Below are positions 48,754-49,781 of a stretch of DNA of 64,000 bases, in pieces. The notes beneath the pieces were generated by a model. It was given only the letters and a program-made list of their open reading frames with translations. It was not told where the DNA came from and made no database searches. Made by a program: the position numbers and the translations under genes. Every line of letters starts with the position of its first letter. Within the stretch, counting starts at the first letter, position 1. This stretch comes from Escherichia coli (GTDB lineage: Bacteria; Pseudomonadota; Gammaproteobacteria; Enterobacterales; Enterobacteriaceae): the NCBI RefSeq assembly GCF_030013205.1, contig NZ_CP122648.1; one strand, 5' to 3'.

Positions 48754-49527
48754 GTGGCAGTGACATATTCGATTGGCATTGATTCTGGTTCTACCGCCAC
48801 CAAAGGGATCTTACTGGCAGACGGCGTGATTACGCGCCGTTTCCTCGTTCCAACACCCTTTCGTCCGGCAACAGCAATTACTGAAGCCTGGGAAACTCTG
48901 CGCGAAGGGTTAGAGACAACGCCGTTTCTGACGCTCACCGGCTATGGACGGCAACTGGTGGATTTTGCCGATAAACAAGTGACGGAAATCTCCTGTCATG
49001 GGCTGGGCGCACGGTTTCTTGCGCCAGCAACGCGCGCGGTAATCGACATCGGTGGTCAGGACAGCAAAGTGATTCAGCTTGATGATGACGGTAACCTGTG
49101 CGATTTCCTGATGAATGACAAATGCGCGGCGGGCACCGGGCGTTTCCTGGAGGTGATCTCGCGCACGCTTGGCACCAGCGTCGAGCAACTCGACAGCATT
49201 ACCGAAAATGTCACGCCGCACGCCATCACGAGTATGTGCACAGTGTTTGCCGAATCAGAAGTGATCAGCCTGCGCTCAGCGGGCGTCGCGCCAGAAGCGA
49301 TTCTCGCCGGAGTGATTAACGCGATGGCGCGGAGGAGTGCCAATTTCATTGCTCGTCTCTCCTGTGAAGCGCCGATTCTGTTTACTGGTGGCGTTAGTCA
49401 TTGCCAGACGTTTGCCCGGATGCTGGAATCTCATCTGGGAATGCCGGTAAATACCCATCCTGATGCGCAATTTGCTGGCGCAATTGGCGCGGCGGTAATT
49501 GGTCAACGAGTGAGGACACGCCGATGA
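48754..49527 (+). CDS. yjiL: BadF/BadG/BcrA/BcrD-type ATPase YjiL (dehydratase activator)
   Basis: 257 aa, IGIDSGSTATKG actin-like ATPase motif. Confidence 0.85.
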   Translation: MAVTYSIGIDSGSTATKGILLADGVITRRFLVPTPFRPATAITEAWETLREGLETTPFLTLTGYGRQLVDFADKQVTEISCHGLGARFLAPATRAVIDIGGQDSKVIQLDDDGNLCDFLMNDKCAAGTGRFLEVISRTLGTSVEQLDSITENVTPHAITSMCTVFAESEVISLRSAGVAPEAILAGVINAMARRSANFIARLSCEAPILFTGGVSHCQTFARMLESHLGMPVNTHPDAQFAGAIGAAVIGQRVRTRR

Positions 49528-49781
49528 AAGAGTTTTTATTTTTATTTCACTCCACAGTCGGCGTCATACAAACCCGCAAAGCGTTGCAGGCAGCGGGCAT
49601 GACTTTTCGCGTCAGCGATATTCCCCGTGATTTACGCGGCGGCTGCGGGTTATGCATTTGGCTGACCTGTCCCCCCGGCGAGGAAATACAATGGGTGATC
49701 CCTGGGCTGACTGAGTCAATTTATTGTCAGCAGGATGGTGTCTGGCGCTGCATTGCACATTACCGGGTTTCTCCGCGTTAA
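49524..49781 (+). CDS. Small cysteine-containing protein (DUF3343-like) translationally coupled to yjiL
   Basis: 85-aa ORF whose start overlaps the yjiL stop (ATGA); GGCGLC motif. Confidence 0.4.

Follow-up and report, generated by a model that had tools for sequence, protein, structure and literature searches.

The window analyzed here is a 64,000-nucleotide stretch of the Escherichia coli contig NZ_CP122648.1 (assembly GCF_030013205.1). Immediately downstream of yjiM and yjiL it contains an open reading frame of 85 codons, which is listed with its neighbors and signals in the table. An 85-aa ORF at this position, the ATGA overlap with the yjiL stop codon and a GGCGLC motif had been reported in a first-pass annotation, and inspection of the sequence and of a program-made ORF list bore out each of these exactly. 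The ORF list gives ATG as the start codon, and the GGCGLC motif occupies amino acids 39 to 44 of the product (codons 49638-49655). The length of the frame by itself proves nothing, since the mechanical list has 57 ORFs of at least 40 aa, mostly spurious, overlapping the 46- to 53-kb region.

Features of the yjiM-yjiL-ytiA locus (positions in the window)
Feature	Position	Strand	Basis and remarks
yjiM, double-cubane [8Fe-9S]-cluster anaerobic reductase, HGD-D fold	47599..48750	+	NF040772; alignment to 6ENO
yjiL, ATP-dependent activase/electron-donating ATPase	48760..49527	+	BcrAD_BadFG; TIGR00241
Shine-Dalgarno sequence of ytiA, GAGGA	49512..49516	+	7 nt upstream of the ATG and still within yjiL (3' end); direct reading
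ytiA CDS, 85 aa plus stop	49524..49781	+	PF11823/DUF3343 'putative Se/S carrier' family; ORF list, Pfam, K-12/RefSeq annotation, dN/dS
ATGA overlap of ytiA start and yjiL stop	49524..49527	+	Translational coupling; ATG 49524-49526, TGA 49525-49527
ytiA codons for aa 32-44	49617..49655	+	Cys41 codon at 49644-49646

The first-pass annotation had named DUF3343 as the family to search, and the expected match was found: the product matches PF11823 over profile positions 2 to 57 of 69, and its score of 48.9 bits (E = 4.5e-13) clears the gathering cutoff of 25. PF11823, previously DUF3343, is designated 'Putative Se/S carrier protein-like'. A search of the NCBIfam profiles found no model that covers the protein. 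The same annotation took this place to have no annotated gene in K-12, which was wrong. The MG1655 copy is ytiA (b4715, YP_009518833.1, 4563668-4563925), flanked by yjiL and yjiK. The region is present in 5385 of 5426 complete E. coli genomes, in which RefSeq labels the gene ytiA, "DUF3343 domain-containing protein" or "putative Se/S carrier protein." As a gene call, then, ytiA adds nothing to what K-12 and RefSeq annotation and Pfam already hold; its value is as a lead. We found no literature on E. coli ytiA/b4715, the matches being to Bacillus subtilis ytiA (rpmE2) or unrelated, and the literature searched yielded no biochemical or other experimental results on any PF11823 protein.

Same-frame homologues with 52 to 84% identity were identified in Escherichia, Citrobacter, Klebsiella, Raoultella, Kosakonia, Atlantibacter, Yokenella and Phytobacter. 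An alignment of 16 enterobacterial species revealed 25 invariant columns, including those of the motif DIPRxLRxGCGLC. Pairwise Nei-Gojobori estimates of dN/dS were 0.15 to 0.25 for ytiA, 0.05 to 0.19 for yjiL and 0.01 to 0.07 for yjiM, with dS between genera saturated. Residues 1 to 62 of YtiA are constrained, and the C-terminal third is variable and relaxed. ytiA is thus under purifying selection, and the frame, whose loss in related genomes was to have counted against the first-pass proposal, is kept throughout the Enterobacteriaceae. Because the Pfam match, the conservation of the frame and the dN/dS values agree, ytiA is a real and conserved gene, already annotated and belonging to a known family. 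It is dispensable in some strains.

The arrangement of ytiA is best explained as that of the third cistron of a yjiM-yjiL-ytiA operon, translationally coupled to yjiL. The ATGA overlap or a 1-nt overlap with yjiL is kept in the divergent allele of E. coli KL53, in Klebsiella, in Yokenella and in a distant relative (L252), with the ATGA form itself in KL53, Klebsiella (L007) and L252, and the equivalent of the ytiA Shine-Dalgarno sequence in Klebsiella and Yokenella is GGAGG. No Rfam family was detected within 47 to 51 kb, and consensus matches to promoters and terminators around ytiA did not rise above those in shuffled sequence. The next gene downstream is yjiK, which encodes an SdiA-regulated-domain protein. 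Its mechanical ORF (49735-50706) opens at an ATG inside ytiA in a different frame; the RefSeq start is a GTG at 49846, which leaves a 64-bp spacer after ytiA. A consensus scan found no terminator between the two genes, and since the spacer has no terminator-like site, yjiK may be cotranscribed with ytiA, although it lies outside the conserved group of three.

Further inspection of the two upstream genes clarified the company that ytiA keeps. YjiM passes the NF040772 model, "double-cubane-cluster-containing anaerobic reductase," with 531.9 bits against a cutoff of 350, and aligns to the crystallized double-cubane cluster protein (DCCP) 6ENO with an E value of 4e-75; its cysteines 40, 59, 78, 93, 108, 273, 302, 304 and 335 align with cysteines of 6ENO. 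The published seven-cysteine spacing, taken as a literal regular expression, does not match YjiM, because the YjiM spacings are a few residues shorter. YjiL scores 364 bits with TIGR00241 and is a BcrAD_BadFG ATPase adjoining yjiM. The first-pass annotation had called yjiM and yjiL a dehydratase-activator pair. That label is outdated: YjiM is no classical dehydratase, and a double-cubane reductase with its ATP-dependent reductase fits better (NF040772). YjiM/YjiL have been described as a "class II" double-cubane system whose physiological substrate is unknown (review PMC7317905). They are the E. coli representatives of the DCCP/DCCP-R systems of Jeoung and Dobbek (PMC7317905; 6ENO). The crystallized enzyme is described there as a two-component system, without a third small cysteine protein, whereas in E. 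coli ytiA is co-operonic with the two genes. We found no paper that discusses such a third protein, apart from STRING links in Table 1 of Lin et al. (PMC5322559), where activase and HGD subunits are linked to DUF3343 in Slackia without comment.

Comparison of flanking regions showed that the three genes travel together. Yokenella (L006) and Klebsiella (L007) keep the gene order HGD-D protein, activase, DUF3343 protein, with 1- or 4-nt overlaps, in flanks wholly unlike those of E. coli. The closest relatives of YtiA beyond the enterobacterial cluster, P0134 (37% identity) and P0138 (35%), are likewise encoded in triads of a 383-aa NF040772 reductase, an activase and a DUF3343 protein with unrelated flanks. 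(P0137 and P0145 lie on short contigs and fell outside the context comparison.) Since the triad is kept amid changing flanks down to 35% identity, yjiM, yjiL and ytiA behave as one evolutionary unit, of which yjiK is not a member. A search for YjiM homologues returned enterobacterial orthologues only, with 86 to 99% identity.

PF11823 members are small stand-alone proteins of about 80 to 100 aa with one highly conserved cysteine (PMC5322559), and YtiA, with 85 aa and Cys41 as its single highly conserved cysteine, shares these properties as well as the profile score. In a 44-sequence alignment reaching 17 to 40% identity, only M1, F8, P34 and C41 are invariant, and L21 and G42 are nearly so. 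Within the Enterobacteriaceae, C41, C44 and C49 are all invariant or nearly so. Cys44 completes a CxxC motif that is common and not universal: the triad member P0138 has CGLS, and another triad member, P0134, lacks C49.

No sequence-related solved structure was found for YtiA in a structure database search. An AlphaFold2 model run on the 44-sequence family alignment had a pLDDT of 92.7 and a pTM of 0.83. In this model, strand 1, helix 1 and strand 2 are followed by a loop (residues 33 to 42), strand 3, a short helix and strands 4 and 5, and Cys41 ends the loop between strands 2 and 3. The best Foldseek match was to PII proteins (E = 0.024). YtiA is thus predicted to have a generic ferredoxin-like fold in which the cysteine loop takes the place of the PII T-loop; PII, CutA and ACT-type domains would share its general beta-alpha-beta-beta-alpha-beta architecture, in which a functional loop joins strands 2 and 3. 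Kinship with TusA/YedF was rejected, as profile-profile comparison gave a probability of 2.9% and YtiA shows neither homology to that family nor its CPxP motif. A thioredoxin-like CxxC oxidoreductase was rejected as well, the second cysteine not being kept family-wide and no thioredoxin fold appearing among the structural neighbors. Nor does YtiA resemble a DsrC/TusE-type cosubstrate in the form of its C terminus, which is variable and relaxed over its last third and has no terminal cysteine. Short matches to the YtiA profile, 4 to 13 in each, were also seen in several long proteins (P0152, 807 aa; P0156, 485 aa; P0190; P0198; P0237), which may be cysteine-rich repeat proteins or compositional artifacts.

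The genomic contexts of the family elsewhere were sampled from two sides, in both cases with hand-made degenerate patterns, so that each sample is biased toward one motif. On the DUF3343 side, a scan for PVPRKLSSSCG with one genome per species yielded 120 loci, 116 of them with a DUF3343 ORF. A YedF/TusA-type gene lies directly upstream of the DUF3343 gene in 95 of the 116, making YedF its commonest direct neighbor. Within 3 kb, YedE was found at 93 of these loci, a class V desulfurase at 55 and SelD at 13; a YjiM or YjiL homologue was found within this distance at none of the 116 loci, which represent the YedF-type subfamily. CGxC is present in 84 of 117 YedF-type members. One locus from a metagenome-assembled genome of Clostridium thermobutyricum (L025, 7552-11602) has an SclA-like desulfurase gene next to the series YedE (TIGR04112)-YedF-DUF3343-SelD; elsewhere the P0150 gene comes after a YedE gene, and that of P0154 has a TusA-type gene on one side and a desulfurase gene on the other. 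The proposal that DUF3343 proteins are Se/S chaperones is a hypothesis from comparative genomics (Lin et al. 2015, PMC5322559), as is the function of the family as a whole (PMC5322559), and these counts reproduce and extend the argument behind the family name. The E. coli copy differs in its surroundings: its neighbors in the window are yjiM, yjiL and yjiK rather than Se/S-trafficking genes, and it adjoins a double-cubane reductase and its activase, with no YedE, YedF, SelD, desulfurase or Sec lyase gene adjoining the locus.

On the reductase side, a metagenome scan for the double-cubane motif GETTCDGKK yielded 120 loci, 118 with a YjiM homologue; an activase was also visible in 70 of these. 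A DUF3343 ORF is present in 25 of the 118, and about 79% show none, many of the loci being truncated. Twenty-five of the 28 DUF3343 ORFs share the strand of the reductase or activase gene and lie no more than 300 bp from it. The reductase-locus sequence sampled has a DUF3343 gene about every 33 kb, far above a background of one to a few copies per genome, which is our own estimate. Four or five of the 25 DUF3343-bearing loci are enterobacterial orthologues, and the rest fall into two other subtypes. In the first, the DUF3343 gene directly follows that of a long reductase (424 to 457 aa), and its product has the motif APTPRxxSKCCGISL and a C-terminal cysteine. Copies of this subtype are found in L148 (12620-12874), L166 (9063-9362), L175 (5020-5289), L204 (1257-1529), L217 (2093-2365), L241 (1614-1868) and L243 (333-593), and they end in sequences such as RDKYC or RMRFC. 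Among the 24 non-enteric reductase-adjacent DUF3343 ORFs, 15 have a terminal cysteine.

In the second subtype the DUF3343 gene precedes the activase gene in operons of the order YedF, DUF3343, activase, reductase, cysteine desulfurase. At L192 (6352-10297), all five products score above the cutoffs of their models: TIGR03527 (YedF), PF11823, TIGR00241, NF040772 and TIGR01977 (SclA-like cysteine desulfurase). The same gene set was recovered at L134, L143 and L225 by sequence search only (phmmer and the DUF3343 profile). Operons of the L192 type tie the double-cubane system physically to genes of selenium/sulfur trafficking. In sequence, YtiA has more in common with the CGxC subtype associated with YedF than with these two subtypes from Firmicutes; adjacency to double-cubane reductases therefore occurs in several DUF3343 lineages. 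In an earlier survey, 955 of 970 double-cubane proteins were in SelD genomes, and the question of selenium-compound processing was raised (Haft, bioRxiv 10.1101/2022.07.06.499078). In the searchable literature we met no discussion of a recurrent link among DUF3343, double-cubane reductases and selenium genes. A family with a proposed role in carrying Se or S thus recurrently adjoins double-cubane reductases in several lineages, sometimes sharing an operon with YedF and a Sec lyase-like desulfurase, and this is the lead that ytiA provides.

Taken with the invariant cysteine and the model, these contexts lead us to infer that YtiA is a Cys41-based sulfur or selenium carrier and a dedicated partner of YjiM/YjiL, with a probability of roughly 0.5. 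Its partners would be YjiM, the double-cubane reductase, and YjiL, which supplies YjiM with ATP-driven electrons, and the working residue of YtiA would be the one invariant cysteine, exposed on a loop of the small ferredoxin-like domain. Cys41 would carry a chalcogen species, either a persulfide or a selenopersulfide, the element being S or Se, and would present it to YjiM for low-potential reduction or accept it from YjiM. Sulfide or selenide equivalents might then be passed to users such as SelD, with Cys44, where present, as the putative resolving thiol. A partnership is suggested by the behavior of the triad as a unit with changing flanks and by the reductase-adjacent DUF3343 genes in 25 of 118 loci. 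The carrier role is suggested by the small number of invariant residues, C41 among them, by the YedE-YedF-DUF3343(-SelD) contexts and by the placement of the cysteine loop in the AlphaFold2 model. The STRING links in Slackia and the survey of SelD genomes fit the same picture. The first-pass annotation had proposed a small redox or sulfur-carrier-like partner of yjiM/yjiL; the conserved synteny supports the partnership and the carrier wording equals the present Pfam label, and the role itself is one that we infer. Several observations count against this reading. The E. coli locus has no selenium gene beside it. As none of the 116 YedF-type loci has a double-cubane reductase within 3 kb, the functions in the two contexts could differ. 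Nor is the small protein an obligatory companion of double-cubane reductases, given that about 79% of the sampled reductase loci show no DUF3343 ORF and the system is described as having two components. Finally, constraint on the C-terminal third of ytiA is weak, and some lineages have a disrupted copy.

The same synteny could be read differently. Tight linkage and translational coupling would suit any stoichiometric subunit, so YtiA might be a noncarrying accessory subunit of YjiM/YjiL, whether an assembly or cluster-insertion chaperone, a stabilizer, or a protein that gates or regulates the substrate channel; the cysteine loop would then be a contact or a cluster ligand. The generic ferredoxin-like, PII-like regulatory fold, with its cysteine loop at the place of the PII T-loop, is consistent with this. 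A lone invariant loop cysteine, however, is typical of relay proteins, and the main context of the family, YedE-YedF-DUF3343(-SelD), has no reductase, which means that the core family function cannot be reductase specific. We therefore regard an accessory subunit as unlikely, if worth keeping in view. The converse reading is that YtiA is a sulfur or selenium carrier that is independent of YjiM/YjiL and merely cotranscribed with them, serving general Se/S trafficking such as the supply of SelD or tRNA modification. It draws on the resemblance of YtiA to the YedF-associated CGxC subtype rather than to the Firmicute reductase-adjacent subtypes and on the presence of yedE/yedF and selD elsewhere in the E. 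coli K-12 genome. It sits poorly with a triad that is kept as a unit in changing flanks down to 35% identity, and with reductase adjacency in several distinct DUF3343 subfamilies, and we consider it improbable.

Equally improbable, in our judgment, is that YtiA is itself a redox or metal protein, in which a CGLC dithiol or a CX2CX4C triad would either accept or donate electrons as a disulfide or hold Fe-S or Zn, with YjiL as the recipient of the electrons or YjiM as their source. C41, C44 and C49 are suggestive in this respect, being invariant or nearly so in the Enterobacteriaceae, as is the CGxC found in 84 of 117 YedF-type members; there is also a weak resemblance of YtiA to a polyferredoxin segment, which is not significant (E = 0.075). 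Against this, C41 is the sole cysteine that is invariant family-wide, cysteines of this set are missing from the triad members P0138 (CGLS) and P0134 (no C49), and the structural neighbors include neither thioredoxin nor ferredoxin-cluster folds. That the ORF is a chance or nonfunctional reading frame might be argued from its shortness, from the truncated or interrupted alleles of some strains and from the lack of ytiA expression data in the literature searched. The Pfam match (E = 4.5e-13), dN/dS values of 0.15 to 0.25, 25 invariant columns over 16 species and a high-confidence fold prediction all speak against it; judged by the conservation analysis it is already refuted, and we give it almost no weight.

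An extension of the preferred reading, Cys41 as a chalcogen carrier in partnership with YjiM/YjiL, is more speculative and on balance doubtful: DUF3343 proteins might be the missing protein cosubstrate or product acceptor of double-cubane [8Fe-9S] reductases, feeding SelD-dependent pathways. YjiM/YjiL would then reduce or cleave selenium or sulfur species on Cys41 with ATP-driven low-potential electrons. If true, this would give the double-cubane enzymes a physiological role and would explain their co-occurrence with SelD. In DsrC and TusE, a small protein serves as cosubstrate, its cysteine carrying a sulfur species that is acted on by a metalloreductase. The likeness to YtiA is one of function only, and we claim no kinship in sequence or fold; the C-terminal cysteine of the reductase-adjacent DUF3343 subtype recalls the DsrC arm, whereas YtiA has no terminal cysteine. 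TusA and YedF (SirA-like) invite comparison as small proteins with a single active cysteine in S/Se relay operons. E. coli has a minimal, three-gene version of the system in a genetically tractable host, which makes the hypothesis directly testable.

Variant alleles were noted in several E. coli strains. In the O157-type strain 350 (L003, 4125-6904), the match to the window stops inside the 3' end of ytiA, at about 49734, and the match of H28 (O157:H7) ends at the same point. The type III secretion effector gene espX6 lies after ytiA and before yjiK in strain 350, and its ytiA encodes 88 aa, of which the conserved N-terminal 62 survive while the C-terminal tail is unrelated. E. coli FCI1 (L004, 2190-5915) has IS50R within ytiA together with an internal stop in yjiM; the module has decayed jointly in this strain. 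Another allele (P0044), recorded on 31 contigs, breaks off after codon 56 and gives a product of 56 aa. Separately, a divergence hotspot between E. coli alleles spans 49299-49748, where identity to KL53 falls to 86.7% in 49449-49598 compared with about 98% in the flanking windows. Its center is in the last 40 or so codons of yjiL, where the YjiL C terminus changes from VRTRR to QRKRA, and it leaves the ATGA overlap and the N terminus of YtiA intact. About 2,100 of the complete genomes match a 501-bp stretch here at 90 to 95% identity.
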